DNA of 64,000 nucleotides from an uncultured Candidatus Saccharibacteria bacterium (lineage in GTDB: Bacteria; Patescibacteriota; Saccharimonadia; CAILAD01; GCA-016700035). The position numbers and the translations under genes are program-made. Position 1 is the stretch's first letter, and the number at the start of each line of letters is the position of its first letter. The notes under the pieces are model-generated. The model worked only from the letters and a program-made list of their open reading frames with translations. It did not search any database and was not told the DNA's origin. The DNA lies in NCBI GenBank assembly GCA_964535385.1, contig CAZHSY010000001.1:29007-93006 (forward strand). Reading direction: 5' to 3'. This document shows, piece after piece, positions 13,878-57,661 of the stretch.

Positions 13878-13975
13878 ACGCTGCAGAAGACCATCGAAGC
13901 GTGGTAAGGATAGCCTACAACGTAGTGAACCCCATTCCGGGCCCCCTGCCCCGTACCTTGGAGTTGATCCAAATC

Positions 13976-14386
13976 ATGAAGAAAGTCCTGCCCAACAAGC
14001 GACGAGGTGTTGTCGCGGGTGTTGTCGTGCTCCTGGCCACTGGCCTCTTGAGCGCCTGCCAACCTCACGAGATCGCCGCCTGGAAAGCTATGGCCTCTCA
14101 TCGTCAGAGCATTCAGAACCACTCCTTCTTGGCGTGCGTTCGACACCACGAGTCAGATCGCGATGGACCCTCTCCCTACATCGGTGGCTACCAAGCCCAG
14201 AACCCGCGAAGCTCAGCTTCTGGTGCCTACCAGTTCCTGGATTCCACCTGGCGCAACGTGTCGCGTGATGCTGGCCATCCTGGCTACACCCGCGCCAAGC
14301 ACGCACCCGACTGGGTGCAGGACGCCGTAGCGCTCTGGACTCTCCAGAATGTCGGCAAGTCCCCCTGGGCTGGTACCGGCTGCTAG
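13976..14386 (+). CDS. Rpf-like transglycosylase-domain lipoprotein
   Basis: Start at MKKVLPNKRRGVVAGVVVLLATGLLSAC (lipobox). The C-terminus (C..HHESDRDG..YIGGYQAQ..GAYQFLDSTW..WVQDAVALWTLQNVGKSPWAGTGC) matches the transglycosylase-like/Rpf domain pattern. About 60% GC, against a roughly 48% background. Confidence 0.55.
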   Translation: MKKVLPNKRRGVVAGVVVLLATGLLSACQPHEIAAWKAMASHRQSIQNHSFLACVRHHESDRDGPSPYIGGYQAQNPRSSASGAYQFLDSTWRNVSRDAGHPGYTRAKHAPDWVQDAVALWTLQNVGKSPWAGTGC

Positions 14387-14419
14387 GACAATCAAGATCT
14401 CCTGGAGGGAGATACACTA

Positions 14420-14470
14420 GACCCCGAGGTGCGAAAGCATCTCGGGGTCTAAACTTTTTACTAAGATAAC
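14420..14470 (+). terminator. rho-independent terminator
   Basis: GACCCCGAG-gtgcgaaagcat-CTCGGGGTC followed by AAACTTTTTAC. Confidence 0.65.
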
Positions 14471-14508
14471 CGCAAACATCATTAAAAACCTTTTGTTATA
14501 GTTAGTGT

Positions 14509-15858
14509 ATGTCTTCAAATCGCCCATGGTCAGAATATCTATCCTCCGAGGCTCGTGATGACCAGAGTGACACTCTTGAACCCGAACTCGATGGTGAGCG
14601 CTATACTCGCTTAGCCCGAACAGTTGATACTTTGCGTGAAAATCCGATGCTTGCAAATATGGATCGTCAGTTAGCCCTTAAACTAGCTCGCATCATGTCG
14701 ATCTATACTGACACTCAGGCGGCCTGGGAACGTTATCAGACTCTCCAACCGTCTGTCCAAGATCAAGTCTTACCACTTAAGGGCTTAGATTTTGCAACTT
14801 TTGCTCATCTTCATAATGATATCCAAAACCTGGACTTAAGCGATATTGACCCATCTGATCGGCAAACGACGATTGGTAATATCGACAATAATCAAATCAA
14901 TCACTTAGAGACGGAACGCAGCCTAGAAACTATTCGTGACGACGGCCTCCATATCGAACTCGAGCCTGCACTCATTGATGATTTACGACAATTTGCCACC
15001 GAGACACCGCGCGAAGACTACCGGCGACGCCTCCCTTTAACTGAACTTTTCAAGAATGACAAGCGAGCTACCATCAATGGTTTAGCGAACTCTAAACTTT
15101 CACTCATAGCCCACGATGCCTTCGATCACATGTGGGGCTTCAATTTTGCGGAACAAACTGGCCTAAGTAACAAATATGCGGCTTTCTTCCAACAAATTGG
15201 CGATCCGGCCAAGACTGATATGTACAACCGACAATCAGAACTAGTGGCCACTACGCTCTTCGGCTATCGCCTCTTTAAAGATACGAATAATTCGTTCGAA
15301 CCAACCTTTGATATTGAAAAAGTTCACCGCGTCCTCAGCGCACAACAACTTCACCATCCCGAAGATTTTACTGTAAATCAAGCTGATGCTCTGGAGCTTA
15401 TCAACACCACCACTAACCCGCATGAGATTAGCTTGATTGGCTATAGTGTGAGTAATATCCATGATGAGATCGTCGAACAGCGGCGTAAACATGGCCGAAT
15501 TAAACTACTCGACGAACAAACCGGGGCTCCAGAGCGTGCAATGCGTACCCTCGAGCCTGAATACGTGGCTTTTGTTGTCGAAATGTTACATCAACTCTTC
15601 CAAAACGATCCACGCCTCCAACATGATCTGCTTGCTACTCAGGTTCTAACTGAACGCTATCTACACGAGATATCAGTCTCACCGCCTGGAAGCAGCGTCC
15701 CATCGCTAAAGCTTACACTCCAAGATATTCGTGATTGCGATCCATACGCTCCAGAACTACGCGAGGCTGGTCAAACCGATTGGTTTGTAGAGAACCCCGG
15801 TGCTCTCGCCAACAAGTATCGACCTCACGGCAGACCCGGTAACTTCTCCCCAGCTTAA
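14509..15858 (+). CDS. hypothetical protein
   Basis: 449 aa ORF. No motif recognised. Confidence 0.5.
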   Translation: MSSNRPWSEYLSSEARDDQSDTLEPELDGERYTRLARTVDTLRENPMLANMDRQLALKLARIMSIYTDTQAAWERYQTLQPSVQDQVLPLKGLDFATFAHLHNDIQNLDLSDIDPSDRQTTIGNIDNNQINHLETERSLETIRDDGLHIELEPALIDDLRQFATETPREDYRRRLPLTELFKNDKRATINGLANSKLSLIAHDAFDHMWGFNFAEQTGLSNKYAAFFQQIGDPAKTDMYNRQSELVATTLFGYRLFKDTNNSFEPTFDIEKVHRVLSAQQLHHPEDFTVNQADALELINTTTNPHEISLIGYSVSNIHDEIVEQRRKHGRIKLLDEQTGAPERAMRTLEPEYVAFVVEMLHQLFQNDPRLQHDLLATQVLTERYLHEISVSPPGSSVPSLKLTLQDIRDCDPYAPELREAGQTDWFVENPGALANKYRPHGRPGNFSPA

Positions 15859-16628
15859 TGCTTCTGCGCATCCTTCATGAGCGTATGAGCCGCAATCTTT
15901 GCTATGCCATGTAATTGCCGAAAAGCCGCCGCTATTTGAGGTGATTCTATAAGCACTCCAATCGTCTCTTCAGCATACGAAATGATTGCTGTCTTATCAC
16001 CATAAGTGTAAATATTGACTGGCTCGTTATAGGCCTCGCGTGGCAACCAAGCCATGTCCCGTCCTAAACGTTCGTCATTCTTTTTTGCATACCGCATCAC
16101 ATCTTCTTCAGCTGGTTCGATGCCATGGACTCCTAGGCCAAGCTCGTGACGTTTTTCAATGAATTTATAGAGCTGCTCACCAAGCAGGTTATTATCACCA
16201 TCTGACCGAATGAAATAGACATCCTTGGCAGTCCGGAGCTGATCGCGATACATGTCTAAAATCCCTTCTTTACCCTCAAAGTAGCGTACCCCTGGTCTGT
16301 TTTGATAGGTGTAGAAATAATTCAAGAGCGCCGGCATGCTGGCCTTCACCTGTTGCTCAGCCTGATGCACTTCCTTGCGGCGTTTCTCCATAAGCCTCTC
16401 GAGAGCGATTGGATTCTCCACCTCATAGGCTAATTTCTTGCCAATTTTATTGCGCTTCACCAGATTCAGCTCCTCGAGTCGCTCGAGGACGGTGTAAGCA
16501 TTGGTACGAGTTTCACCCGTGCGATCAGCTAGGGCTGGTGGGGTCATCTGTCCACCTTTAATCAGCTCCAAGTAAAGCCTCGCCTGTGATGATGTTAATC
16601 CAAGCTGTAATAACGTATTTTCATTCAT
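15855..16628 (-). CDS. TrmB-family HTH transcriptional regulator
   Basis: 257 aa. N-terminal winged helix (LGLTSSQARLYLELIKGGQMTPPALADRTGETRTNAYTVLERLEELNLV) typical of TrmB-like regulators. Confidence 0.6.
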   Translation of the reverse strand: MNENTLLQLGLTSSQARLYLELIKGGQMTPPALADRTGETRTNAYTVLERLEELNLVKRNKIGKKLAYEVENPIALERLMEKRRKEVHQAEQQVKASMPALLNYFYTYQNRPGVRYFEGKEGILDMYRDQLRTAKDVYFIRSDGDNNLLGEQLYKFIEKRHELGLGVHGIEPAEEDVMRYAKKNDERLGRDMAWLPREAYNEPVNIYTYGDKTAIISYAEETIGVLIESPQIAAAFRQLHGIAKIAAHTLMKDAQKH

Positions 16629-16699
16629 TTTGTCGGATTCATTACGACATTTATTATATAGAGTTTACAGATATGATACAACTTTTTAACTTTTCTATA

Positions 16700-16728
16700 T
16701 TGACATTTATATAATATTCTGCCATAAT
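16700..16728 (+). promoter_or_regulatory. sigma70-like promoter of the hammerhead-punctuated operon
   Basis: TTGACA, a 17 nt spacer, then CATAAT, in an AT-rich spacer. This is followed by a GC-rich leader ending in CGACAGAAGGAG and then the ATG at 16801. Confidence 0.55.
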
Positions 16729-16800
16729 GCACAAGGTCAAGGCATAGCGCCAAAACCCGGGCAGCGACGCCCGCCCGCACCCCGACAGAAGGAGAGCACC

Positions 16801-17064
16801 ATGCCCACCGCCACATCGCCCGAAGTCATCGAGGAATGGTACGAGGAGGAGAGTAACTCCGACTTCATCATCGTCAACTACCCTCTGGACGAGAGCTCAT
16901 CAGCAAGATGGACTCTCTACAGCGAGAGCGACGATGAAGAGTTCGGCACCTGCTACACCTACATCCACGACCGCACCTACGACAACTGTCCGGAAGGATG
17001 GGAGATGTGGGGAGCAGACCCGGATGAGGGTGGCTGGGACATGCCGGACTCTTGGTATGACTGA
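16801..17064 (+). CDS. highly acidic small protein (possible DNA-mimic/anti-restriction-like)
   Basis: 87 aa, extremely rich in D/E/W/Y (EEWYEEESNSDF, SESDDEEFG, DPDEGGWDMPDSWYD). About 60% GC. Confidence 0.5.
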   Translation: MPTATSPEVIEEWYEEESNSDFIIVNYPLDESSSARWTLYSESDDEEFGTCYTYIHDRTYDNCPEGWEMWGADPDEGGWDMPDSWYD

Positions 17065-17114
17065 GAGGAACTTCTCCGCTCCGGGAGGGCGGCGCACAAG
17101 CGCCCCTCCCCACC

Positions 17115-17170
17115 CCGACTCGGCCGAATGACGGCCCTGATGAGCTCACCGCAAGGTGGACGAAAGTCAG
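17115..17170 (+). ncRNA. candidate type III hammerhead ribozyme (copy 1)
   Basis: The element reads cCGAC-UC | GGCCG-aauga-CGGCC | CUGAUGA | GCUCACC-GCAA-GGUGGAC | GAAA | GUCAG. The cleavage triplet is CUC. Stem II carries a GNRA loop. It is preceded by a small hairpin at 17091-17104. Confidence 0.6.
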
Positions 17171-17190
17171 CCGCACCCCGAAAGGAAAAA

Positions 17191-17403
17191 ATGACGGACT
17201 ACGAGGCCCAGGCAAGAGCCGCAGAACTGCGCGGACAGGCAGAAGCCGCTAGGCTGCGGGCACGAGCCCTCGAAGAACAGGCTGCGCAACTTCTCCACAG
17301 CAGTAACGCGCCAATTCAGCCAGGGCAACACAAGTGCGAATGCTCAAGATGCGAAGTACCCTGGGGAACAATCGCCGACGCCTACGCGTCGCCTCGCATC
17401 TAG
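17191..17403 (+). CDS. small coiled-coil/Cys-motif protein
   Basis: About 70 aa. Start ATG is 8 nt after GAAAGGAAAAA. Sequence: MTDYEAQARAAELRGQAEAARLRARALEEQAAQLL...HKCECSRCEVPWG. The track ORF 17128.. starts inside the ribozyme and is probably too long. Confidence 0.45.
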   Translation: MTDYEAQARAAELRGQAEAARLRARALEEQAAQLLHSSNAPIQPGQHKCECSRCEVPWGTIADAYASPRI

Positions 17404-17423
17404 GCTCTGGCCGACAAGGTTCC

Positions 17424-17501
17424 GGGGCGTCCTTCCAAAACGCCCCCTGACTCGCGGGAACAGTCCCGCCTGATGAGCCCGGTCACCCCTGCGAAAGTCA
17501 G
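17424..17501 (+). ncRNA. candidate hammerhead ribozyme (copy 2) with upstream protective hairpin
   Basis: GGGGCG-uccuuccaaaa-CGCCCC hairpin, then CUGAC-UC | GCGGG-aacagu-CCCGC | CUGAUGA | gcccggucaccccugc | GAAA | GUCAG. The core boxes and stems I and III are conserved, but stem II pairs poorly in this copy. Confidence 0.5.
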
Positions 17502-17529
17502 CCCGCACCTCGACAGAAGGAGCAAGTAC

Positions 17530-18126
17530 ATGAGCAACGTTGTGATCCCCGACGGTCGCGAGATCTACATCTCGGTCGACATCGAAGCCGACGGGCCGAT
17601 TCCCGGCGACTACTCGATGGTCTCGCTCGGCGCCAAAGTCATCGGCTACGGCGAGGAGGAGTTCTACGCCGAACTGGCTCCGGTCAGTGACAACTGGGTC
17701 CCAGAGGCTCTGGCTGTCAGCGGCTTTAGCCGCGAAAAGACGCTCACCTTCCCCGACGCAGCCACTGAAACCACCCGATTTGAGGGCTGGCTCGATGGAC
17801 TCTACGCCCAGCACACCACCCTCTACGGTGGCAAGTGGGTACTCTTCCCCAAGCTGGTCATGGTCGGCTTCAATGCCCCCTTCGACTGGAGCTTCGTGAA
17901 CTGGTACCTGCACCACTTCGCTGGCCGCAACCCGCTCGGTATCAGTGCCCTGGACATCAAAGCGATATACCTCGGCCTGACCGGTTGCAACTGGGGTGAG
18001 ACCAGCATGCGGCGACTGCCTGCCGAGCTCCGACCGAGTGATGGCTTGAGCCACAACGCCCTCGAGGATGCTCGCGATCAAGGTCGCATGTTCGAGCAGC
18101 TCATGGCGCGGCTCCAAGCTAACTAG
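17530..18126 (+). CDS. DEDDh-family 3'-5' exonuclease (DnaQ/RNase T/oligoribonuclease-like)
   Basis: Start at AAGGAGcaaguacATG. Exo I motif SVDIEADGP, Exo II-like FNAPFDWSFV, Exo III HNALEDARD (H-x4-D). About 199 aa. Confidence 0.65.
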   Translation: MSNVVIPDGREIYISVDIEADGPIPGDYSMVSLGAKVIGYGEEEFYAELAPVSDNWVPEALAVSGFSREKTLTFPDAATETTRFEGWLDGLYAQHTTLYGGKWVLFPKLVMVGFNAPFDWSFVNWYLHHFAGRNPLGISALDIKAIYLGLTGCNWGETSMRRLPAELRPSDGLSHNALEDARDQGRMFEQLMARLQAN

Positions 18127-18140
18127 GCAAACAAGGTTCC

Positions 18141-18221
18141 GGGGCGTCCTTCCAAAACGCCCCCTGACTCGGCGAGTAATGCGCTCGCCCTGATGATGAC
18201 CACCGCTAGGTCGAAAGTCAG
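18141..18221 (+). ncRNA. candidate hammerhead ribozyme (copy 3) with upstream hairpin
   Basis: GGGGCG...CGCCCC hairpin, then CUGAC-UC | GGCGAG-uaaugcg-CUCGCC | CUGAUGA | u-GACC-accgcua-GGUC | GAAA | GUCAG. Confidence 0.6.
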
Positions 18222-18249
18222 CCGCACCTCGAAAAAAAGGAGCAAACAG

Positions 18250-18849
18250 ATGAAGAAAATCGTCCTAACTGGTGGCCCTTGTGCCGGTAAGACCAGCGTC
18301 GTACAGGCAGTCCAGCAGCACTTCGGCGAGGTCGTCAGCTTCGTACCCGAGGTTGCAACTATGCTCCTCTCAAGTGGCTGGCCCTTGCCCGGTCGCGATA
18401 TCGACTGGACTCCCAACTGGCGCGACACCTTCCAGCGAGCCATTGTCACGACCCAGCGAGAGCTTGAGGATGCCTACGAGCTAACTGCCCGGCAACACGA
18501 CCAGCAACTCTTGTTGACTGATCGCGGCATCATGGACGGCGCCGCCTACCACCCGAGCAATCGGGCTTTTCTTGAAGCCACTAACACCGATCACGAGGCA
18601 GCATTGAGCCGCTACACAGCCGTTGTTCATCTCGAATCAATCGCCGTGGCCAATCCCAGTCTCTATTCGCGGGGTAACAATCCCTACCGGTATGAGGACT
18701 TGGACGAAGCCATTTCCCTGGAGGCGGCCACCCGCCGAGCCTGGCTGGATCATCCACAACACGTCGTCATTGAAGGTGATGATCTGACCCACAAGACTCA
18801 GACTGTATTACAGCTCATCCAGGAGGTACTCGACAACGATTCACTCTAA
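18250..18849 (+). CDS. P-loop NTPase, AAA_28/NadR-type nucleoside-kinase-like
   Basis: Start at AAGGAGcaaacagATG. Walker A LTGGPCAGKTS. About 199 aa with a compact kinase-like architecture. Confidence 0.6.
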   Translation: MKKIVLTGGPCAGKTSVVQAVQQHFGEVVSFVPEVATMLLSSGWPLPGRDIDWTPNWRDTFQRAIVTTQRELEDAYELTARQHDQQLLLTDRGIMDGAAYHPSNRAFLEATNTDHEAALSRYTAVVHLESIAVANPSLYSRGNNPYRYEDLDEAISLEAATRRAWLDHPQHVVIEGDDLTHKTQTVLQLIQEVLDNDSL

Positions 18850-18857
18850 AAGGTTCC

Positions 18858-18936
18858 GGGAGGTCCTTGCAAAACCTCCCCTGACTCGGCCGAATGACGG
18901 CCCTGATGAGCTCACCGCAAGGTGGACGAAAGTCAG
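18858..18936 (+). ncRNA. candidate hammerhead ribozyme (copy 4) with upstream hairpin
   Basis: GGGAGGU-ccuugcaaa-ACCUCCC hairpin, with compensatory changes relative to copies 2 and 3. Then CUGAC-UC | GGCCG-aauga-CGGCC | CUGAUGA | GCUCACC-GCAA-GGUGGAC | GAAA | GUCAG. The core is identical to copy 1. Confidence 0.65.
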
Positions 18937-18963
18937 CCGTACCTCAAAAAAAGGAGCAAGTAG

Positions 18964-19437
18964 ATGTCCGAGATCGAACGCAAGTGGCGCCTGGATGATG
19001 TACCGGGACGGCTTCTCCGCAACGTCACCCCACAATTACTCCAGCAAAGCTACCTCATCGTAGCTCCTGACGAACTCCGATTGCGTAGTGATGGTGAGCG
19101 CAACTGGCTGACAGTCAAATCTGACGGTAAGCTCACTCGAGAAGAATGGGAGGTCGAACTACCAGACTGGGCCTACCGACAGCTCGCAATATCGGCTCCA
19201 TACAGCCTCGAAAAGCGCCGCTACCCAGTGATGGTCGAGGGACGCGTCTGGGAAGTCGATATCTACTCAGGGGCTCTAGCTGACTTGATCACTGTCGAGG
19301 TCGAGGTGGCCAGTGAAGCCGAGGCCCAAACTCTAGGCCTACCAACATGCTTCGGACACAGCCAAGAGGTCACCGACGATAGTCGCTACAAGAACAAACG
19401 ATTGGCCGTCGACGGACTACCTGGCACTGACGAGTAA
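18964..19437 (+). CDS. CYTH-domain protein (triphosphate tunnel metalloenzyme; class IV adenylate cyclase/triphosphatase family)
   Basis: 157 aa. The N-terminal MSEIERKW carries the ExExK signature of CYTH domains. Later acidic motifs (EVDIY, VEVEVASE) are consistent with the tunnel fold. Confidence 0.65.
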   Translation: MSEIERKWRLDDVPGRLLRNVTPQLLQQSYLIVAPDELRLRSDGERNWLTVKSDGKLTREEWEVELPDWAYRQLAISAPYSLEKRRYPVMVEGRVWEVDIYSGALADLITVEVEVASEAEAQTLGLPTCFGHSQEVTDDSRYKNKRLAVDGLPGTDE

Positions 19438-19880: not shown

Positions 19881-19994
19881 TACCTTCTCCTTTTGTACTA
19901 CAATACCCCTTCTGCAACAGATACGAAATCATTGACTTTATCAATATTTGATGCTATTATACAAAAAGCACCTACCACCCCCTCAGGAGGGAAA

Positions 19995-20537
19995 ATGAGC
20001 ACAAGCACGGGTACCGAACTCGAGGTGGTCCGAAGGACCGTCCTCGAACACACCACCTACTACGACCACACCACCGGGCGCCCCATCACCGACCGCATCA
20101 ATCTTGCTGGACGCATCTCCTCCGAGATCGTCAAGCGCGACATGAGCATCGAGGACGCCCTGACCTGCCTGGAGACTCTGGGCACCGTCAAAAGTGCCAA
20201 CCTCACCGCGGTGATGCGGCTGGCTGATACCGGTTTGCCACTTCTCAACGTCCATCATCTCTTCGCCTTCTGCGATGAGCTGGCCGTGCCAGTCGACTTC
20301 GGTCGTGACTGGCTGCGTTTCTTCGCAGTCGAACTGGCAGACGAGGATGAGATAACCAACGCCATCATCATGGCAGAGGGTCTCATTCAGAAGCTCCGTG
20401 ACACCGAGCGAGATCCCATCCAGCAGAAGATCAATCATGACCGCGACAACACGAGCTTCCTCTCGGAAGTCCGTTTGCTCGCCGAGCAGCGACAGATCCT
20501 GGTCCTCGAGACCCTCTGCGACGAATTGATGATCTGA
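19995..20537 (+). CDS. hypothetical protein (high-GC)
   Basis: Likely start MSTSTGTELEVV, 7 nt after GGAGGG. The track ORF starts earlier, at 19893, in AT-rich sequence. The stop overlaps the next gene's start (TGATGA). Confidence 0.45.
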   Translation: MSTSTGTELEVVRRTVLEHTTYYDHTTGRPITDRINLAGRISSEIVKRDMSIEDALTCLETLGTVKSANLTAVMRLADTGLPLLNVHHLFAFCDELAVPVDFGRDWLRFFAVELADEDEITNAIIMAEGLIQKLRDTERDPIQQKINHDRDNTSFLSEVRLLAEQRQILVLETLCDELMI

Positions 20538-21442
20538 TGACCATCAAGAACCCGTTCAACGAACTGGGGCTCGCCCCGGCGGCCGTCAAGGCCGCTGGGT
20601 ACGAGCGCTGCATGGACTTGGCGCAAGCCATGTACCGGCAGATGTCGAAGTATCGACACCCTGACGTTGGTGGATCTGCCAAGAGCTTTGCAGCCCTCGA
20701 GGAGGCCATGCGCTTCCTCGAGGATCCGAGTTTGCGGAAGGAGTTCTACGACGAATATGTTGGCAAGTTGGGTGAAGCCCGACTACAGCAGGTTCGTGAG
20801 CAGAATGACTCCCTCAAGCTGGAGCTCAACATGGTTCGAGAGCGACTTAGTCAAGCTATCGGCGCGCCTTTCTCACCAGGTTCCATCCAAAACCTGACGC
20901 CGGGCACACTGCTGCTCATCTCGGATCACCCTGACTGGATCCTCTTGCGAGCCGATGAGGCTGGCGTGACGATGCAGTACCTCGAGGAAGGTGAGGCCAA
21001 GCGCCAAACCGCCCTCTGGGATAATCAGGGTACCGGCAGGTCATTCATCGTGACTCACACCCAACGAGCTTTCCACTGGGATCAAAGCAAGATCACCAAG
21101 GCTGAGGCTGGCTTCTGGCTGGCTGCACCAGCCGGTGAGACCAAGACCCAGTACCTGGCTCGGCTCGAACCCATTGGCAAAGCCGTAGCGGTTCCGTTCG
21201 ACCTGATCGCTTGTCTAGGATACAGTGTCGTAAACCGCAATACCGCTGATACGCAGAGGGCGCTGAATGCCAGCGTTATGCCACGTAGCGGAGTCGGCGC
21301 AGCCGCACTTTCGGACAGCAGTGCCCAGGCACTGAGTTTCCGTCCGGAGCTCGGCGCGACGCTGATCATCTCTCGGTATGCCGACGCGCGAACTTTCCAG
21401 CCCCTGGGCACCATCCAGGGCGGGCTGATCCCACAGCCATGA
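20537..21442 (+). CDS. J-domain (DnaJ-like) protein
   Basis: N-terminal NPFNELGL...AYRQMSKYRHPDVGG includes the HPD tripeptide of J domains. 301 aa, high-GC. Confidence 0.55.
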   Translation: MTIKNPFNELGLAPAAVKAAGYERCMDLAQAMYRQMSKYRHPDVGGSAKSFAALEEAMRFLEDPSLRKEFYDEYVGKLGEARLQQVREQNDSLKLELNMVRERLSQAIGAPFSPGSIQNLTPGTLLLISDHPDWILLRADEAGVTMQYLEEGEAKRQTALWDNQGTGRSFIVTHTQRAFHWDQSKITKAEAGFWLAAPAGETKTQYLARLEPIGKAVAVPFDLIACLGYSVVNRNTADTQRALNASVMPRSGVGAAALSDSSAQALSFRPELGATLIISRYADARTFQPLGTIQGGLIPQP

Positions 21443-21462
21443 GGCCAACTCGTGCCTCACCA

Positions 21463-21502
21463 CACCTCCTCACGGATAACGTGAGGAGGTGTTCTTTTTT
21501 TA
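21463..21502 (+). terminator. rho-independent terminator
   Basis: CACCTCCTCACG-gataa-CGTGAGGAGGTG followed by TTCTTTTTTTAA. Confidence 0.7.
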
Positions 21503-21506
21503 ATCT

Positions 21507-23412: not shown

Positions 23413-23760
23413 ATGCCTCACGTCCTTCCGTTCTACACCAAGGCCGGTAAGACCGCCATCATCGACACCTACGGCACACTGAAGAAGTTCGACAAGCACC
23501 TGGTGAAAGCCGTGCTCAACACCTTCAATTCCACCTGCGATGAGATAATGGACAAGGACAACGTCCCCCTCCACCCCTTCACCATCACCACCTCTATGCC
23601 GATCGATATCGAGCCAGTGATCGTGGCCTGGGACACCCCGGCACGCCATCCTCATCGACGCACGCTGGAGCACAAGCTCCGCCTGGCAGTACTCCCTGGC
23701 AACTTCCCTGTCCCCTGGCAGCTGAACCTTGTCTTCGCCGGTGATCGACGACTAGGCTAG
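23413..23760 (+). CDS. hypothetical protein
   Basis: 115 aa. Upstream TTGACT-17-TAATAT promoter and a GGAG ribosome-binding site. Confidence 0.4.
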   Translation: MPHVLPFYTKAGKTAIIDTYGTLKKFDKHLVKAVLNTFNSTCDEIMDKDNVPLHPFTITTSMPIDIEPVIVAWDTPARHPHRRTLEHKLRLAVLPGNFPVPWQLNLVFAGDRRLG

Positions 23761-23823: not shown

Positions 23824-23913
23824 TGGCGGAGAGAGAGGGATTCGAACCCTCGATACGGTTACCCGCATACACGCTTTCCAAGCGTGCTCCTTCAGCCACT
23901 CGGACACCTCTCC
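23824..23913 (-). tRNA. tRNA-Ser (anticodon GGA)
   Basis: Reverse complement reads GGAGAGGTGTCCGAGTGG...CTTGGAAAG...GGTTCGAATCCCTCTCTCTCCGCCA. It has a long variable arm and an encoded CCA. Confidence 0.8.
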
Positions 23914-25192: not shown

Positions 25193-25432
25193 CTACCCCT
25201 GCCCGCGCCGCCGCTCCGAGTACCGCCAGACACCATAGGCCACGCCCAGCGCCCCACATGTCACCAGCCAGGTCTTCAAGGCAAGCACCCAGCAGACTGA
25301 AGTCACGTCGTAACCCACGGCAATACAATCACCAGAGCAAGTTCCCCGTACGTAGCACTGGAGGAAGGCTACAGCGGCAGCGGCAATCGGTCCAATAACC
25401 AGAATGAGTGAGGCAAACCGCCACTGCTTCAC
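25193..25432 (-). CDS. small membrane protein
   Basis: 79 aa with two hydrophobic segments. Confidence 0.3.
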   Translation of the reverse strand: MKQWRFASLILVIGPIAAAAVAFLQCYVRGTCSGDCIAVGYDVTSVCWVLALKTWLVTCGALGVAYGVWRYSERRRGQG

Positions 25433-27456: not shown

Positions 27457-27472
27457 TCTTCCCTCCTGGGAG

Positions 27473-28003: not shown

Positions 28004-28146
28004 AAAGTTCTATTGTATAAAACTTTCTGAGAGAGGACAAAACGTTTGGAAATGGCCCAGAGGGGCCGGGAGCAGATGCGGTAGGCATCTTCGTGGTAAA
28101 ACCACAGCTCCCAGCCCCTCAGCCGTGCCCCAGCCGAGCTTGCAGA

Positions 28147-28899: not shown

Positions 28900-28940
28900 G
28901 GATCTGTCCTCCTAAGGGACGGTATTCCGAAAAACCAACC

Positions 28941-29012
28941 TGGTCTCCGGATATCTAATCCCTATCTGGTGCTAATCTGTACAATAGATAGGCTTCAGGT
29001 ATCCGGAGACGT
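28941..29012. promoter_or_regulatory. nested inverted repeats (operator-like) upstream of gene 28147..28899
   Basis: GGTCTCCGGATATC ... GGTATCCGGAGAC inverted repeat separated by about 40 nt, with an inner CTATCT...AGATAG repeat. Confidence 0.4.
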
Positions 29013-29156
29013 ATATTCCAAACGTTTTGTCAAAAAACAACTTAGTAATACTTGATTACCAAGTCGTCACAGTATAGCAAATAACGGTCTTTTTGTCAAT
29101 ACTCTATGACAGTTTATTTATTAGGGGCCCTACGGACCTACAATCTTTTGCGTAGC

Positions 29157-30656
29157 CTAGTTTGACTGTTTAATGCGCTGTTCGATCGTCGCCCGTAGAT
29201 TTCGTTCGGCCGTTGTCAACAGCCGACGATCTTCGTCTGTAGCTTGAGGCGGCCAGGTTTTTCCAGCGTAGTATGCAAGAGCATCTTTTTCTGAATCACA
29301 GATGGTAGAGATTAGCTGTCGGAGTTGTAAGCCGATTTGATAGTTTTCACTAGCCTGGCTACTCTCGGCTGATTGCTGAGCCTGAATGTCACTAAAGGGA
29401 TTATAAACAATGATGCCAGAATCATATTGCTGAGCACTTACCTCGGCACCTCCAAGGCCCTTGGCCTTGGCTTGAATGGGTATACGCCAGCTGGGTCGAT
29501 CTTCTGAAGGCAGAGTGTTAATGAGTTCAACATCAAAGGAGTGCTTACCTGACTCCCGACGGCCATCCATCGGTGCATCCTGTCGCCAGGTAGCAAACCG
29601 AACTTGATACTGACCCGGATCGGCGTTATCGATCGTGCAATATTGTCGTACTGCCAACAGATAGCTGACCAGCTCAAAGAGATCACCATTTGGAGCCTGA
29701 TTATGGTTGATGAGATCTTGGGCGGCCTCTGCCAAACTACCCAACTCCTGATGTATTAGCACGTCATAGCGCTCACTAAAAGTCCCTGCTTGTGAGTATC
29801 TTGCGAGGTGCGCTTCCATCGCAGGAGGGAACCGAGGCGAGACTGGCTCACTAGCAGTTTCTTCGGCTTGCTGTGATTGCTCCATACCAAACTGAGTTAG
29901 TAGCTGAATGTGCTCCAAGGCAGCACCATGGGTTATCTTAAGACACCGATAGCGCTGGGTGATCAAATCTTGCTGCTCTACTTCCGAGAGATTAGCTTCT
30001 TGAAGTCGCTCACCGATCAGAGCGTTCATACTTGAGGCCTTGCGACGAGCGTCGGAGATCAATTGATTGCGCTCACCAAAGGCGTGCTCGCGAGCTGGAT
30101 CACGCGAGCTGTCGAGTTTCATATCGAGACTGGTTAGAACGTCACTGATAGAACGTGAGGCCTTCTCTTGACCGACCAAAGCATCAAAGGAATCCACACC
30201 TCGAAACTTCAGGGTTGCGCTCAGGAGTAGGTCCGAAGCTTGCTCGAGGCGCTCCCCTTGATTATGTAGACTATTGAGAGTACCAAGCGAACGATACCAT
30301 TCGTCAGTGGTACGGGCGATCTCCCGAGCTTCATGACTACCAGGTTGGAGACTAGCCAGTAGACCTTCCTGATCAGCATACATATCGACCGTGGCCTGTA
30401 AACGATCATGACGGCGGGCATTACCTACAAAGGCTTCGACTGCGGCCGGATGGGCAGCGTGAGTCTCGGCCGCATTACGCCAGTAAGCGTCTTGAACCTG
30501 ACCCTCCTCGGTAGGAGTGTTAATATTAGATGCTAAAACATCGAGTGAGAGATGTCGCGGTGTCGCAGCCAGACTCTTCAGCTCTCCCGACAGATCTGAT
30601 GTGGTTTCATCTGGCAGTCTATCCGAACCAAGCGACTGAGATTCAATAATACTCAT
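29157..30656 (-). CDS. hypothetical protein
   Basis: 499 aa ORF at background GC. Confidence 0.5.
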   Translation of the reverse strand: MSIIESQSLGSDRLPDETTSDLSGELKSLAATPRHLSLDVLASNINTPTEEGQVQDAYWRNAAETHAAHPAAVEAFVGNARRHDRLQATVDMYADQEGLLASLQPGSHEAREIARTTDEWYRSLGTLNSLHNQGERLEQASDLLLSATLKFRGVDSFDALVGQEKASRSISDVLTSLDMKLDSSRDPAREHAFGERNQLISDARRKASSMNALIGERLQEANLSEVEQQDLITQRYRCLKITHGAALEHIQLLTQFGMEQSQQAEETASEPVSPRFPPAMEAHLARYSQAGTFSERYDVLIHQELGSLAEAAQDLINHNQAPNGDLFELVSYLLAVRQYCTIDNADPGQYQVRFATWRQDAPMDGRRESGKHSFDVELINTLPSEDRPSWRIPIQAKAKGLGGAEVSAQQYDSGIIVYNPFSDIQAQQSAESSQASENYQIGLQLRQLISTICDSEKDALAYYAGKTWPPQATDEDRRLLTTAERNLRATIEQRIKQSN

Positions 30657-30762: not shown

Positions 30763-31005
30763 TCAGGAGGCAGGAAGCGGCGCCGCTCGATACGGCGCGC
30801 CGGCCGGCCGAGCTGGCCGAGCCGTCTGCGTGGTGGTCTCGCCACTAGCCGCGACGGCCGGATTGGCCTCCAGCCACTTGTAGCCCCGCGACAGATCACC
30901 GTTGCCGTGCTTGGCCATGATCTGAGCGTCGGTCAGCCCCTCGTCACGCCACTGCGTGATCTGCTGTGCGATCTCTCGATCGCTCTTCTTCTTGCCAATG
31001 GCCAT
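30763..31005 (-). CDS. small hypothetical protein (high-GC)
   Basis: Probable start MAIGKKKSDREIAQQITQWRDEGLTDAQIMAKHG... A terminator hairpin lies at 30722-30748. Overlaps the 3' end of the next gene. Confidence 0.3.
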   Translation of the reverse strand: MAIGKKKSDREIAQQITQWRDEGLTDAQIMAKHGNGDLSRGYKWLEANPAVAASGETTTQTARPARPAGAPYRAAPLPAS

Positions 31006-35332: not shown

Positions 35333-35758
35333 TCAGGATTCGGCCGCCGCCTCGGTCACTCTTGGAGGTAGCGGCTCGTCGAGGTTAAAGCTCCCTTCAT
35401 AGTCGGGGAACTGGATCTCGACAGAGCACGTTTTCTGCAACAGTGCAGGTGGCCCAGCCTCCACAACTGCAGCGAAGTGGAAGTGCTGGGCGTCAACACT
35501 GACTGCTCCATCGACAGAACGAAGCTCGCCCAGGCGAACTTCATCCTCCAAGGGAATGGCTTCGTTGTCATCGCTGAAGAAGTGAATGAAGATGCTGTAC
35601 GGTGCCGAGCCTGTGGCCAACGCCATCAACAACTTCTCTCGAGTTTGGGCGCTTCGAAGGCGCCAATGCTGTCGTTCCATGAAGGACCTTTCTGGTGTAG
35701 AGGGCCCAGCCGCAGACGCGGCCGGGCCCTGATGATCAGGACTTGGGTTGCTGACCAA
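35333..35758 (-). CDS. hypothetical protein (high-GC)
   Basis: 141 aa ORF. A terminator hairpin lies at 35283-35304. Confidence 0.4.
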   Translation of the reverse strand: MVSNPSPDHQGPAASAAGPSTPERSFMERQHWRLRSAQTREKLLMALATGSAPYSIFIHFFSDDNEAIPLEDEVRLGELRSVDGAVSVDAQHFHFAAVVEAGPPALLQKTCSVEIQFPDYEGSFNLDEPLPPRVTEAAAES

Positions 35759-36839
35759 CCTGCAACTGGAGTTGCTGATCGGTACCAGAGTCGCCTCCGA
35801 CGATCACCACACAGTTCGGGGTTGCGCCGCCCTGAGGTGGAGCATCCTTGCAGGCCTGAAGCAGTTCTTGCTGAGACTGGATCTGGCGCTCGGCGGAATA
35901 GCCAGGCTGACTGTAGAGCTCGCCGGCGTGAGCCGCCTTGGAGCGTTCCAGATCTACCCGTGCATCCTCCACACGCTGCTCATCAGCGATTCTGGCCAAC
36001 TCGGCAGAGGACTTCTCAGCGTTGTCACGTCGCTGCGTGAGCAAGGACTGTGCTTCGGGACTGGTCAAGGAGTTGAAGACAACCGTGAACGGTTCGCACT
36101 TGCCACCACTCGAGATGATCGCCGTAGAGCAGAAGATGTGCAGGTCCTCTGACATACCCATGATGGAGGGCAGCTCCTTGAAGGCCCGATCAGCGATCTG
36201 CTTGGCAATCTCCGGCCACTTGGACGGATCATTGATCACGAAAACATCGTAGAGTGGGACGACCTGAACGTAGGCGTGTTCCAGGGCTTTGTTGAGGCTC
36301 TCACGCAACATGTTCATCCAACCCGGATCGGACGACATGGCTTGTTCCTTGGGATCATCGGACTCGTTGTCCTCACCCGTGGTGCAGTTGTACTTCTGGC
36401 AATACTGATAGAAGGCGAAGAGCGCCCGGCAGGCGCCATTCTTGTCTTCTCTCAGACACTCATCAGTACCGCCATCGGGTCGGTTGATCGCGAAGTAGGT
36501 GATGAATGAACCATGCACCGTGTAACCAGGTGTCTTGCCATCATCAGACGGCTTCGACGGAGCCATCAGCTCCTTCTGACTATCTGCGCCATCGACGTCC
36601 TGGATGTTCCAGTTCCGAGCGTTGGCGTAGATGTATTCGACATCGTCGTCAGAATCCTTGCTGACCTCGTTGCCAGGCATGGCGATCTTCTTGACCTCGC
36701 GTGCGTCGCCAGTTCCCGCACCAAGCACGTAAGCCATGCGGTAGGGTGTCGGCTTAGCCGTGGAACATGCCACGAGCAGCACACCGAGCACTGCCAGGCA
36801 GAGCAAAGCTCCACCGATCCTGCGGGTTTTCATCTTCAC
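35736..36839 (-). CDS. secreted lipoprotein, hypothetical
   Basis: 367 aa. Signal peptide plus lipobox (LLVACSTAKP). High-GC. Confidence 0.5.
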   Translation of the reverse strand: MKMKTRRIGGALLCLAVLGVLLVACSTAKPTPYRMAYVLGAGTGDAREVKKIAMPGNEVSKDSDDDVEYIYANARNWNIQDVDGADSQKELMAPSKPSDDGKTPGYTVHGSFITYFAINRPDGGTDECLREDKNGACRALFAFYQYCQKYNCTTGEDNESDDPKEQAMSSDPGWMNMLRESLNKALEHAYVQVVPLYDVFVINDPSKWPEIAKQIADRAFKELPSIMGMSEDLHIFCSTAIISSGGKCEPFTVVFNSLTSPEAQSLLTQRRDNAEKSSAELARIADEQRVEDARVDLERSKAAHAGELYSQPGYSAERQIQSQQELLQACKDAPPQGGATPNCVVIVGGDSGTDQQLQLQVGQQPKS

Positions 36840-37246
36840 TGTCCTCTCTGTTGGGTTCGTGGGTACTGCTGAACTTCTTCATCATCCTCATCGACTGGTA
36901 GCCCGAGTTTGTCGTGCTCCAGCTTGTTGAGAAGCTGACGAATTTGCTTGTAATCGTTGCCCATGGAAATCTCAACCGTTGGTTCCTCATCAGCAAAGTC
37001 AACGACCCGCTTCAAAAGTTCCGTAGCCCGGTTGAACATCACTAGCAACTCTTCTTGCGAATAGCGGTGTCCGTAGGGCGCCATGTGCGCATCCCAATCG
37101 AGCTGCTTAAGGCGAAGCTCGTGAATGCGTTCCTGTTTACGCTCATGTGCGTCGTACCAGGTCTTGATCCCCCATCCTGCTAGGACGAGGAGAACGACGG
37201 CCAGCACGATCCAAATAGGAGCATACATAGCCAAATATTTAAGCAT
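36836..37246 (-). CDS. membrane-anchored hypothetical protein
   Basis: 136 aa. N-terminal TM helix (PIWIVLAVVLLVLAGWGI). Confidence 0.45.
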   Translation of the reverse strand: MLKYLAMYAPIWIVLAVVLLVLAGWGIKTWYDAHERKQERIHELRLKQLDWDAHMAPYGHRYSQEELLVMFNRATELLKRVVDFADEEPTVEISMGNDYKQIRQLLNKLEHDKLGLPVDEDDEEVQQYPRTQQRGQ

Positions 37247-37419
37247 ACCCCTCCTCCCAGAGAGTCATTGTGTAGGTGCGGATACAGCGGTAACGGTCAC
37301 TGAGCCGGAGCTATCGTATCGATTAAGCTCATCCCTGGCTCCCTCAACCAAAAACAGAGATCAGTTAATCTTAAAAACGTAAGGTAAAGTATAATATTTA
37401 CCTAATTATGTCAAGTAAT

Positions 37420-37655
37420 GACTGCAACAAGTAGGGCTTGTTGCCACCCTGAGCGGTCCCGTTATCCACTCATCACTCTGCTCGTGTTCTGTAAAAATCG
37501 TTTTCAGCGCTTGATGAATGGACAGAAAGATCAGGATTTTGGGTAAAAAAACACCGCTTGCCGCGGACCTAAGGCTTAGTCCTGGGCGAAACGGGAATTT
37601 CGATACCTATAGCGTATTTAACTGTAAGGGTAGTATAGCACGTTTCGTCAAGTTT
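37420..37655 (-). repeat. structured 5' leader element, copy A (duplicated upstream of two membrane-protein genes)
   Basis: About 85% identical to 39647..39895 in two conserved blocks around a diverged middle. A minus-strand promoter, TTGATA-17-TATACT, lies at about 37631-37665. Long-range complementarity UCCCGUU/AACGGGA suggests an RNA fold. Confidence 0.6.
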
Positions 37656-37764
37656 ATCAAGCTTTTCATCAAGAAATGGTGGTGAGTTAATCAAAAAGAA
37701 AACCCCTACGAAAAGTAGGGGTGGGTGGTGGGTGAAGCCCGAAGGCCCCACCCACCACAAGTGG

Positions 37765-39534
37765 TTAGCCAGTAGCAGACGATCGGCGATGACGTTCCTG
37801 GTTGAGGCGCGTCAGTTCGTCGAGCGTGGCGTCGAGCTTGCTCTGAAGATCTGCATCCGAGAGCGTAGCCAGATCGCCTGACGCCGGGGTAGTGGGATCT
37901 GCCACCTCCCCCGGATCCTGCTCGGACGGCGTGCCGCTGTACAGCACCCGCCCGATTTGGCCGCCGTTGAGCTCCATCGCCTGATCAAGCTGACCAGGAC
38001 GGATGCGAAGCAAGTAGCGCGGCTGCCCGGATCGAACCGCGAAGGCCGACCAGGTACCATCCTCTGCTGGGATGAACTCTTGCAACTCCCCTTCCTGCCC
38101 CTTGTTGAGGAAGGCCGGGTCGATACGCGAGAGGACATCGCGAGCGCGTCGCTCCAAGTCCTGCTCGGTGAGCAGTCCCTTGTCATCCTCGTTATGCACT
38201 TGGACACGCATGGGATTGAACTGACCGTAGGTCACTTGGTTCGAAGCCACCACCGACAGGGCGATGATGGTCTCGGCGCGACTAGCGCGCGGTGTCAACG
38301 GCGTGGCGTAGTAGACCTGTTGATCGAGGTTCGAGCGCAGCACATAGTCGGCTGCATTGCCCTTATTCGACGACAGGTCTACAGGGTCGAAACCAAACGA
38401 AGCATCGGCCCACTTGCGGCCAGCGCCCCAGTTGATCATCTCCCGTTGTTTCTGCGCCACACTGATAGGATAGACCGGGCCCTCGAGCTCGCCGGCCTTA
38501 ACCGAGTGCTTGTACTCGATGACCGGTTCACCCGACTCCGAGCCACGCACCACGATGACACCAGCTGGCACCTGGATACTCCGGGCACCATACCAGCGGT
38601 CTACCGTTGCCGGAAGCACGATGGTCGGCACGTCACCCTTGGCGCAATAGCCGTAGGCGTTGTACAGATCCCAGACTACGTCAGGAATCTCACGACGGAT
38701 CTGATCCGCAAGCGAGTTACCGAAATCGCCTGTCAGGGCGTAGTTCAGTTTGTGGTCACCTTCGAACCGGCACTGGTGCACCGTCTCCGGTGTCCCGTCC
38801 CACTCGACGATCGAGTCGATGTGAACCCGACGACCATTGCCGTCTCGGATGGCCGACCAACGTCCAGCGCCGCCCTCAGCGGGCAGATAGGCGTAGGTCT
38901 CGTCCAAGATGTCGGCTTTGGAGTCGCCGGTGGAGCGCTCGGCCATGACCTTCTGGGCACCTACCAGCGAGGCGGGACGCTCATCGAAACCTGCTTCCAG
39001 GAAGTCGATGGGACCCGTTTTCACATGGGCCTTGGGGTCATGATCACCGTCGAGATTAGCCAGGATACGCGGTTGCGCGTCCTTGTCGGCGTACTCGATG
39101 GTGATGGAGTTGACGAACGGCCGTGGCTCCAGCTTGAAGTCAGTCGTGAACGACATGACGACCAAGAGAGCGGCCAGACCAGCAGCGATACCAGACACCA
39201 CCACGTTGGTGAGTCCAGCCCGTGCATAGAACCGATCGACGGCTTTATCCTCTTCGGAAAGCTCTCGGGCGTAGAACCGGTTGCGCTCCGGCCTGGAACT
39301 GTAGGCCACGAAGGCCGCCAAGCCAAAGCACGCTGCCACAACGATCGACCAGAAGATCTGGCCAGAACGCGAGGTGAGCACGAAGCCCACCTCGTAGTAA
39401 CGCCGGGCGTTGAACCCAGCTTGCGGCCAGAGGGCGCCGATCAGAGCGCCGACTGCCAGCCACAGCACTGTGATGGCGAAAAACGCCGCCACAGTGCTGG
39501 CTATGCCGTACACGTACGGCCGGTATTTCTTCAT
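37765..39534 (-). CDS. large membrane protein, hypothetical (high-GC)
   Basis: 589 aa. Ribosome-binding site GGAGGGAAGATG. N-terminal TM helices (IASTVAAFFAITVLWLAVGALIGALW, and more). The 531 aa plus-strand ORF is judged to be antisense artefact. Confidence 0.55.
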   Translation of the reverse strand: MKKYRPYVYGIASTVAAFFAITVLWLAVGALIGALWPQAGFNARRYYEVGFVLTSRSGQIFWSIVVAACFGLAAFVAYSSRPERNRFYARELSEEDKAVDRFYARAGLTNVVVSGIAAGLAALLVVMSFTTDFKLEPRPFVNSITIEYADKDAQPRILANLDGDHDPKAHVKTGPIDFLEAGFDERPASLVGAQKVMAERSTGDSKADILDETYAYLPAEGGAGRWSAIRDGNGRRVHIDSIVEWDGTPETVHQCRFEGDHKLNYALTGDFGNSLADQIRREIPDVVWDLYNAYGYCAKGDVPTIVLPATVDRWYGARSIQVPAGVIVVRGSESGEPVIEYKHSVKAGELEGPVYPISVAQKQREMINWGAGRKWADASFGFDPVDLSSNKGNAADYVLRSNLDQQVYYATPLTPRASRAETIIALSVVASNQVTYGQFNPMRVQVHNEDDKGLLTEQDLERRARDVLSRIDPAFLNKGQEGELQEFIPAEDGTWSAFAVRSGQPRYLLRIRPGQLDQAMELNGGQIGRVLYSGTPSEQDPGEVADPTTPASGDLATLSDADLQSKLDATLDELTRLNQERHRRSSATG

Positions 39535-39646
39535 CTTCCCTCCAGGGGGTGATAGGTACAGGCATAACGATATCGGTCGTTATCACCGTGGCTTTCCTTG
39601 CGGTCAGCTCACATCTGATCTCATTACAAGAAATCACACGCGAGAT

Positions 39647-57660: not shown

Positions 57661-57661
57661 C

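Follow-up and report, generated by a model that had tools for sequence, protein, structure and literature searches.

GC-rich genes interleaved with the core genes of a Saccharimonadia genome are probably old residents rather than recent insertions

Atypical GC (guanine plus cytosine) content is routinely taken as a sign of recent transfer, and Lawrence and Ochman are said to have provided the amelioration model for horizontally acquired islands of atypical composition. A second process, GC-biased gene conversion, reportedly causes within-genome heterogeneity of GC3 (GC at third codon positions) in bacteria, as Lassalle and colleagues are said to have described in 2015. Both ideas bear on the DNA analyzed here, a stretch of 64,000 nucleotides (nt) from an uncultured Candidatus Saccharibacteria bacterium (contig CAZHSY010000001.1), which we call the window. 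Ten GC-rich blocks of genes in the window are interleaved with core genes (pepF, msrB, PGI, groESL and PGM), and a first-pass annotation had explained them as repeated, relatively recent insertions from a high-GC donor, such as an actinobacterial host, that are not yet ameliorated. Actinomycetes are the usual hosts of Saccharibacteria. We favor a different view, to which we give a probability of about 60%: that the GC-rich blocks are old, clade-wide, fast-evolving and mostly lineage-restricted genes with a maintained high GC3, and not recent insertions.

The resemblance to horizontally acquired islands is easily described. The blocks are atypical in GC and GC3, are rich in orphan genes, carry their own promoters and terminators, and have a tRNA gene nearby. 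Unlike acquired islands, however, they are non-contiguous, and no integrase, transposase or recombinase was detected by Pfam or PHROG matches in any GC-rich open reading frame (ORF). A repeat search found no att-like repeats bounding the blocks; the direct repeats that it did find are copies of a ribozyme and of a duplicated leader RNA. The tRNA and most of the blocks are kept in place in deeply diverged relatives, and GC3 has not converged on the genome value despite saturated synonymous sites. The raised, time-stable GC3 of particular genes and the presence/absence variation among relatives recall GC-biased gene conversion, whereas sharp steps at gene borders and AT-rich spacers are unlike a regional form of that process.

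Two further systems invite comparison. Recent transfers from Actinomycetota to Saccharimonadia, with >99% nucleotide identity and lying beside recombinases, have been documented in sludge communities (bioRxiv 10.64898/2026.09.16.751625). The window involves the same phylum pair and, for one family of 589-amino-acid (aa) membrane proteins, the same proposed direction, but its actinomycete homologues share only 28-36% protein identity and the 589-aa gene appears to be vertically inherited within the clade. One block is also punctuated by hammerhead ribozymes, and clustered hammerheads are known to flank single genes in prophages; in vitro experiments demonstrated that the polycistronic RNA is cleaved there (PMC3088659, Perreault et al. 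2011).

Composition and conservation of the GC-rich blocks

Judged by its closest matches, the window is part of an environmental Saccharimonadia genome (Saccharibacteria, Candidate Phyla Radiation or CPR) of about 51% GC. Counterparts of its flanking housekeeping genes occur in relatives (GroEL at 79-97% identity, plus PGM, FemAB, PGI, pepF and msrB), and a pattern scan with one genome per species found the loci closest to the 589-aa family, at 52-61% identity, in metagenome-assembled genomes (MAGs) labeled 'Candidatus Saccharibacteria/Saccharimonadia' and 'Patescibacteria'. The annotation's guess that the organism is an epibiont was a good one, as the nearest genome matches are Saccharibacteria and Saccharimonadia MAGs and the organism is an epibiont-type Saccharibacterium. 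Syntenic loci of relatives were ranked by GroEL identity (L008 and L038, 97%; L013, 90%; L011, L016 and L039, about 85%; L017-L022, about 80%), and three further loci (L040, L041 and L044) were compared; all are syntenic loci of one clade, and statistical tests across them are not independent.

Composition was computed gene by gene for a set that combined ORFs, the gene calls of identical public contigs, and ribosome-binding site (RBS) positions. The whole window has 51.8% GC. Mean GC of the 19 block genes is 0.599, with 0.629, 0.445 and 0.722 at first, second and third codon positions (GC1, GC2 and GC3) and 0.683 at four-fold sites, against 0.504, 0.583, 0.416, 0.514 and 0.516, respectively, for the other 49 genes; the GC3 difference has a Mann-Whitney p of 1.5e-9. 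All 13 of the top 13 GC3 genes lie inside the blocks that the first-pass annotation delimited, and its range of 57-66% GC for these blocks was accurate (measured, 0.56-0.67). Its background of roughly 48% GC was some 3 points too low (51.8% for the whole window, 50.4% for the other genes), and its list lacked the gene at 25193-25432(-), which is likewise GC-rich (0.61). The annotation had also named uniform GC3 as an outcome that would speak against a mosaic. Per-gene GC3 is instead spread far beyond binomial noise (chi-square 774, 67 degrees of freedom), forming a continuum from 0.34 to 0.91, and GC is most extreme in the gene at 28147-28899(-) (GC 0.669, GC3 0.908).

Sharp GC steps coincide with gene borders. 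The picture of AT-rich spacers holding promoters and terminators is right for much of the window, where uncalled (intergenic) DNA has a GC of 0.467 and contains promoter-like sites and long hairpin, terminator-like sites, but it does not extend to block 16801-19437, which has no AT-rich spacers because its spacers are ribozymes that are themselves GC-rich (0.61-0.71). A strong RBS (GGAGG or GGAGGG) precedes most block genes, though not all of them. The description of the contents as mostly secreted, lipo- or membrane proteins applies only to the genes starting at 13976, 35736, 36836 and 37765, and the others look cytoplasmic.

Very long antisense ORFs overlie some of the GC-rich genes, including one of 531 aa at 37957-39552(+) and one of 320 aa at 28093-29055(+). 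In both, GC1 exceeds GC3, and we therefore judge them to be by-products of stop-codon scarcity and not genes. A gene caller relying on length would take the wrong strand at 17344-18117 and at 28093-29055.

Such a mosaic could in principle be an artefact, in which chimeric assembly or binning contamination mixed actinobacterial reads into a Saccharibacteria contig, and the composition itself is the one thing in its favor. Five independent sequencing runs yielded seven contigs that match the window with 100% identity over the GC junctions. Because these contigs were assembled independently, the mosaic is no assembly chimera; the relatives' assemblies, deposited at ENA, JGI and NCBI, show the same mosaic as well, and we regard an artefact as having practically no chance of being the explanation.

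The comparison with relatives bears most directly on recent insertion. For eight of the ten blocks, diverged relatives carry orthologues (34-82% aa identity), mostly in the same syntenic slot and equally rich in GC3, so that repeated, recent or strain-specific acquisition was not borne out: these blocks occur in the very lineage to which the housekeeping genes belong. Absence from relatives, as expected of an island, was seen for the cassette 19995-21442, which is polymorphic, and for two blocks that were not found in relatives, 30763-31005 and 35333-37246. Same-slot orthologues of the genes at 26656-27048, 27244-27456, 23413-23760 and 24010-25071 and of an Rpf-like gene occur among L038, L039, L011 and L016, with GC3 up to 0.905. 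Thus the 115-aa orphan at 23413-23760(+) (GC3 0.78) has an orthologue in L038 at 68% identity (GC3 0.77) and two distant representatives, while the 353-aa orphan at 24010-25071(-) (GC3 0.66), whose gene call comes from L003, has one in L038 at 40%. The 130-aa orphan at 26656-27048(+) (GC3 0.76) is matched in L038 (79%), L011 (61%), and L016 and L039 (57%, GC3 0.905). The 70-aa orphan at 27244-27456(-) (GC3 0.89), which the first-pass annotation had drawn as 27244-27549, is matched in L038 (55%) and in L039 and L016 (44%, GC3 0.857). The GC-richest gene, at 28147-28899(-), encodes a 250-aa protein and has orthologues in L038 (66% identity and GC3 0.94 over the whole gene; 71% and 0.957 over the tblastn segment), L011 (48-49%, GC3 0.87-0.88) and L040 (partial, GC3 0.955). 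Its family comprises about 20 representatives of one shared architecture, a conserved ERRxRG...LERAI.AQAAW core followed by a K/R-rich tail. The 150-aa orphan at 27473-27925(-) (GC3 0.79) shares its slot with genes of similar size in L038 (161 aa), L011 (166 aa) and L013 (157 aa), in which no homology to it was detectable. The gene at 25193-25432(-) encodes a 79-aa orphan.

Two other observations point the same way. The tRNA-Ser(GGA) within the mosaic at 23824-23913, which the annotation had reported and which is confirmed on the minus strand, is native: it stands in the same slot in L038 and L039, and what was found is a tRNA kept in place, not an insertion bounded by repeats. Seven of the orphans, searched as a concatenated query against 1.84 billion representatives, belong to tiny families only, whose members with inspected DNA context lie in Saccharimonadia-type loci, and no actinomycete relatives were detectable among these representatives.

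The cassette at 19932-21492(+) is the most instructive case. It consists of two GC-rich genes, 19995-20537 (180 aa) and 20537-21442 (301 aa, with an N-terminal J domain), has its own promoter-like site and hairpin terminator, runs on the opposite strand to the flanking msrB and pepF, and splits this pair, which elsewhere is adjacent and co-oriented. The msrB-pepF slot contains the cassette in the window (19881-21506), L041 (9328-11001), L042 and L043, and lacks it in L038 (7940-8000), L039 and L040. From its absence in L038-L040 we had considered the cassette a new insertion; this was dropped, as the same genes occupy this slot in L041 with no more than 34% and 39% identity, their GC3 being 0.82 and 0.73 against 0.36 for msrB and 0.52 for pepF. 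By this divergence the cassette is old and polymorphic, not new, and its presence and absence at one site suggests that recombination among members of the clade has added and removed it. L040 and L041 are very alike in neighboring gene content despite differing in the cassette. A prophage origin of the whole region was likewise dropped, as there were no PHROG matches to phage structural proteins, and scans of viral contigs returned no relatives of the J-domain protein or the 589-aa family.

Recent insertion from a high-GC donor nevertheless has points in its favor. GC3 of up to 0.91 is actinomycete-like, the 589-aa family is common to Actinomycetes, an Rpf-type domain is present, the sludge transfers provide a documented precedent, and two of the ten blocks were not found in relatives. 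Against these stand the shared slots and the high GC3 of the diverged orthologues, the dissimilar neighbors of the distant actinomycete homologues, the lack of mobility genes and att-like repeats around a native tRNA, the orphans' want of detectable actinomycete relatives, and an exonuclease that is closest to proteobacterial plasmid genes. We consider recent insertion to be largely refuted by synteny, and very unlikely.

The behavior of GC3 over time is what most clearly departs from a fading donor signature. Housekeeping genes compared with the closest relative have a dS (synonymous substitutions per synonymous site) above 1.2 or are too saturated to calculate, and at four-fold sites in conserved codon families two genomes share the base at only 0.30-0.47. 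Yet the GC3 of orthologues is strongly correlated between genomes (Pearson r = 0.94, n = 28, p = 2e-13). In six relatives' loci, genes lacking a Pfam match have a GC3 of 0.650 versus 0.516 for those with one (p = 2.5e-6, in syntenic loci and hence not an independent test). Simple amelioration would have converged third positions long ago; they have not converged, and therefore something maintains GC3. We hypothesize that each gene of this old set keeps its own GC3 set-point (0.6-0.95) in every relative examined despite synonymous turnover, and that the GC-rich codon usage is actively maintained. In such a scheme gene origins would be mixed and ancient, with the 589-aa protein and the Rpf-type lipoprotein stemming from old inter-phylum transfer with Actinomycetes, in a direction that we infer, the operon at 16801-19437 probably being derived from a mobile element, and the remaining GC-rich genes being orphans restricted to the clade. 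Either GC-biased gene conversion or selection on codon usage linked to expression may be the force acting on GC3. Gene conversion of this kind could operate at recombination-prone accessory loci, with which presence/absence polymorphism and fast protein evolution are consistent.

An expression-linked codon gradient could also, by itself, account for much of the pattern. Here a well-expressed core would be held at balanced or AT-ending codons, through selection for translational efficiency, cost or 'complementarity' to the host, while weakly expressed and weakly constrained genes drift toward GC-rich equilibrium values determined by mutation or GC-biased gene conversion. The continuum of GC3, its conservation among orthologues and the shift at both GC1 and four-fold sites are what such a gradient would produce, as is the fall of GC3 with protein conservation (Spearman -0.69 between aa identity and GC3, p = 0.001, GC3 being higher where protein identity is lower). 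It has also been proposed that the codon usage of Patescibacteria is complementary to that of their hosts (cited in bioRxiv 10.64898/2026.09.16.751625). However, intergenic DNA is AT-richer instead of GC-rich, several orphans have low GC3, and groEL, presumably highly expressed, has only a mid-range GC3 of 0.58; we regard this explanation as possible but doubtful. Less probable still is that a conserved subset of genes is kept at host-like, actinomycete-like GC-rich codons while the rest of the genome is balanced or 'complementary'.

Several observations weigh against the old, maintained gene set that we prefer. Orphans of low GC3 exist at 540-1682, 14509-15858 and 29157-30656 (GC3 0.41-0.45). 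Two blocks have no counterpart in the relatives' slots and are perhaps more recent acquisitions: 35333-37246, and 30763-31005(-), an 80-aa GC-rich ORF that overlaps the start of a 664-aa gene and for which no relatives were found. The apparent dS of the GC-rich genes, 0.4-1.2, is below that of their neighbors, and they are not fully saturated against the very closest relative. The AT-richer intergenic DNA argues against a simple GC-rich neutral equilibrium, and the GC steps at gene borders, together with the AT-rich spacers, favor selection on coding sequence or transcript over regional conversion.

A membrane protein shared with Actinomycetes, its leader RNA and two lipoproteins

The gene for the 589-aa membrane protein (37765-39534, minus strand; GC 0.61, GC3 0.73) encodes N-terminal transmembrane (TM) helices, a beta-rich domain and a C-terminal helix. 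It was found in 12 relatives, ten of which (L008, L011, L013 and L016-L022) have it in the same slot, between the genes for PGM and a 316-aa protein and groES-groEL. GC3 of the orthologues is 0.63-0.83 against 0.44-0.61 for the adjacent groEL. The family is small, with only 16 clusters among 5.8 billion proteins, and outside the relatives a genome scan with two peptide patterns, which gives a lower bound on distribution, found it only in Actinomycetes. Full-length homologues occur in 13 actinomycete genomes (Actinomadura, Spirillospora, Actinocorallia, Planobispora, Frankia, Kineosporia and one Actinomycetes MAG), in loci of GC 0.68-0.74 and with a GC3 of 0.88-0.98. The closest homologues are not in Actinomycetota, however: identity is 53-82% within Saccharimonadia versus 28-36% to Actinomycetes. 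The actinomycete homologues lie in unrelated gene neighborhoods, with no conserved neighbors and none shared with the window, so that no operon-level transfer can be claimed. An AlphaFold2 model built from 13 sequences of the family was unusable (pLDDT 54, pTM 0.40).

In a neighbor-joining tree (midpoint-rooted, without support values) the syntenic Saccharimonadia genes form one clade, and two Saccharibacteria paralogues (L024 and L030) fall among the actinomycete sequences. This distribution fits one or more old transfers between the host phylum and the epibiont, and composition alone suggests the direction from Actinomycetes to Saccharimonadia. The proposed link to an actinobacterial donor is thus retained for two genes, the 589-aa family and the Rpf-type lipoprotein, but not for the orphans, which have no outside relatives, or for the exonuclease, which is nearest to proteobacterial plasmid genes.

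Upstream of the 589-aa gene lies a 72-nt leader RNA (39775-39846, minus strand; 96.1 bits with R2, a covariance model built from six well-aligned copies). A second copy (37544-37614, minus strand; R2 95.1 bits) precedes a unit containing a 136-aa protein and a lipoprotein. Both are contained in a direct repeat, 37423-37639 and 39654-39871, whose copies are 87-97% identical and lie in the 350 nt before the 589-aa gene and the 520 nt before the 136-aa/lipoprotein unit. The leader consists of an invariant 5' GCUAUAGGUAUCGAAA, a long terminator-like hairpin with the invariant loop AAGCCUUA, and a U-run, and it sits within a 5' region of about 330 nt that is kept at the nucleotide level upstream of the relatives' 589-aa orthologues. 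Apart from the second window copy, all R2 matches precede the 589-aa gene, in ten relatives; the carriers are L008, L011, L013, L016-L018 and L020-L022, together with L019, whose copy is cut by the locus end. Paired cells make up 94.7% of the alignment, and compensatory changes are seen in nine pairs. No Rfam family matched at the gathering threshold, and none credibly at E-values up to 5. A GGGUGG-like motif had raised the possibility of a T-box; this was dropped, there being no Rfam T-box match and the downstream gene being unrelated to amino-acid metabolism. The leader appears to behave like a transcription attenuator specific to the 589-aa gene family, as yet unclassified, and its duplication would place the lipoprotein unit in the same regulon as the 589-aa gene.

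This unit comprises three genes on the minus strand (35333-37246), encoding a 136-aa single-pass membrane protein (36836-37246), a 365-aa lipoprotein (35736-36833) and a 97-aa protein (35333-35626). It lies in a variable slot, from the 589-aa gene to groES, that is occupied by other genes in L008, L011 and L013. An analogous order is found in L030, where a small TM protein, a 589-family paralogue and a lipoprotein (26% identical) follow one another.

The second gene with an actinobacterial flavor encodes a 136-aa lipoprotein with a diverged Rpf-type transglycosylase domain (13976-14386, plus strand; GC 0.62, GC3 0.69). Domains of this type are typical of Actinobacteria. The window copy scores 21.6 bits against PF06737, below the curated cut-off of 27, but four of five syntenic orthologues match this family (best E 3.2e-14), so that the annotation's call of an Rpf-like transglycosylase is upheld at the family level. 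Orthologues stand in the same slot in L038 (72%, GC3 0.66) and L039 (69%, GC3 0.76). With PF06737 transglycosylases the protein shares, besides this match, the conserved Glu, a G-x-YQF...STW motif and a lipoprotein signal; it differs from the reference in being short, single-domain and diverged, and in residing in a CPR genome. Searches of PDB sequences, with the single sequence and with a profile, gave nothing credible.

A ribozyme-punctuated operon

The block at 16801-19437 is a five-gene operon on the plus strand, preceded by a promoter-like site (TTGACA-17-CATAAT, 16700-16728) and divergent from a gene for a TrmB-like regulator, 15855-16628(-). A repeat search showed that every spacer of the operon repeats a single element about 90-100 nt long, laid out as a hairpin followed by CUGACUC|G, stem I, CUGAUGA, stem II, GAAA and GUCAG. 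Gene 1 (16801-17064, 87 aa, GC3 0.75) is followed by copy 1 (17077-17175; 75.8 bits with R1, a covariance model built from the four window copies), in which the core CUGAUGA...GAAA...UC is present. Gene 2 (17191-17403, 70 aa, with an RBS before the ATG at 17191 and a homologue in L018 at 8704-8994(-)) is followed by copy 2 (17418-17506, 93 bits), and gene 3 (17530-18126, GC3 0.79), a DnaQ-like 3'-5' exonuclease (phrog_192, 2.7e-8), by copy 3 (18135-18226, 92.6 bits). Gene 4 (18250-18849) encodes an AAA_28 P-loop ATPase or kinase-like protein (PF13521, 2e-24; homologues in L018 at 40% and L044 at 33%), and copy 4 (18852-18941, 103.8 bits) separates it from gene 5 (18964-19437), a CYTH-domain protein (PF01928, 23.7 bits; phrog_6660, 1.5e-16) with homologues in L018 and L044. 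Several ORF starts in the first-pass annotation were wrong here: the one at 17128 lies within a ribozyme, and the true starts are 17191, 17530 and 18250.

Comparison with homologous operons carries the assignment of these elements. R1 finds eight further copies, in L018 (7872-7957, 8597-8683 and 8965-9058, minus strand), L044 (6670-6765, 7386-7460, 7871-7964 and 8579-8667, plus strand) and L019 (6692-6784, minus strand), making 12 copies from four genomes. Because RNAalifold chose a competing CUGAU/GUCAG pairing, we specified the fold manually and assessed it by counting pairs. Paired cells account for 94.6% of the 12-copy alignment and compensatory changes occur at 16 of 22 pairs, figures that no shuffle equals. 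All five pairs of stem I covary and are 100% paired; stem II is 82% paired with four covarying pairs, and stem III is 98.6% paired with two compensatory pairs. The catalytic core is invariant, with CUGA(U/C)GA, GAAA and the cleavage-site UC in 12/12 copies. By core, three helices and covariation, the elements are type III hammerhead ribozymes and are predicted to be self-cleaving. They fall under the Rfam gathering threshold: the best match to RF00008 (Hammerhead_3), that of copy 2, is 29.8 bits (E 0.0012) against a gathering score of 48.5, and at that threshold Rfam reports only tRNAs in the window and no ribozyme copy.

As in the prophage clusters (PMC3088659), several hammerheads lie between the genes of one transcription unit, and by analogy with those arrays the four ribozymes would cut the polycistronic RNA into single-gene mRNAs. 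The operon's gene content, too, resembles that of mobile elements. In contrast to the prophage clusters, all four copies in the window are of type III and have a conserved extra upstream hairpin, and the array belongs to a chromosomal operon; no phage structural genes accompany it, and the TrmB-like regulator next to it is conserved across Saccharimonadia relatives. L044 carries 14509-19437 as a unit (the 449-aa protein at 67%, the TrmB-like regulator at 75%, the exonuclease at 67% with a GC3 of 0.72, the CYTH protein at 43% and the AAA_28 protein at 33%), and L018 carries part of it.

Three of the operon's five proteins have phage or plasmid affinities, which suggests an old mobile-element origin: the exonuclease is of plasmid or jumbo-phage type, and the CYTH and AAA_28 proteins have phage-family matches. 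The exonuclease is 41-45% identical to genes annotated as '3'-5' exonuclease' on Proteobacteria plasmids, Streptomyces accounts for 3 of 97 records, and its metagenomic relatives lie on contigs of GC 0.44-0.66; on these matches it is not specifically actinobacterial. The product of gene 1 is a very acidic orphan, for which nothing beyond one fragment was found among 1.84e9 representatives. By eye its translation contains many Asp and Glu and only three Lys or Arg in 87 aa. One might speculate that this acidity recalls the DNA-mimic anti-restriction proteins that adjoin clustered prophage hammerheads.

Neighboring features and implications

Other features of the window lie apart from these subjects. 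The only transposase-like piece, a 97-aa fragment of an IS200-like Y1 transposase (42468-42761(-), PF01797, E 6.5e-9), is located between PGM and FemAB, outside the GC-rich region, and is absent at the corresponding spot in L008. At 59290-60026(+), an AT-rich unit (GC 0.40-0.42) combines a gene for a PIN-domain protein with a small ORF upstream of it; the unit resembles a toxin-antitoxin pair and contrasts with the high-GC blocks as their low-GC counterpart. Three adjacent small paralogues (124, 131 and 175 aa) at 61579-63135(-) cross-match the same stretches of L044 (23-1193). Two weak Rfam tRNA matches (42-43 bits) occur at 56369-56428 and 56483-56558(+); ARAGORN calls only the latter, with an abnormal anticodon loop ('tRNA-???'), and similar odd calls are made in the tRNA clusters of L040 and L041. 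A cluster of MscL, methyltransferase and tRNA genes spans 54373-57751 in the window and lies between PGI and pepF in L040 (4203-9979) and L041 (12806-16865). In the window it is about 30 kb away from PGI-pepF, and this difference in position indicates that the region was rearranged within the clade.

The habit of equating atypical composition with recent transfer appears to fail for the blocks of this window, which calls for caution in composition-based detection of transfer in CPR and Saccharibacteria genomes. Set against that familiar picture, what is unusual is long-term non-amelioration in a reduced CPR genome, and it raises the question of what maintains gene-specific GC3 in a reduced epibiont genome. 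The blocks also supply candidate host-interaction genes, namely a membrane protein shared with Actinomycetes only (by the pattern scan) and an Rpf-type wall hydrolase, as well as two RNA elements lacking Rfam annotation, the four-hammerhead array and the attenuator-like leader of the 589-aa gene. If the improbable case of host-like codons kept in a conserved gene subset were true, codon dialects would separate a host-interaction or accessory regulon from the core, perhaps through translation tied to host-derived resources or through hotspots of recombination and biased gene conversion, and this CPR bacterium would possess a stable, heritable two-dialect genome.

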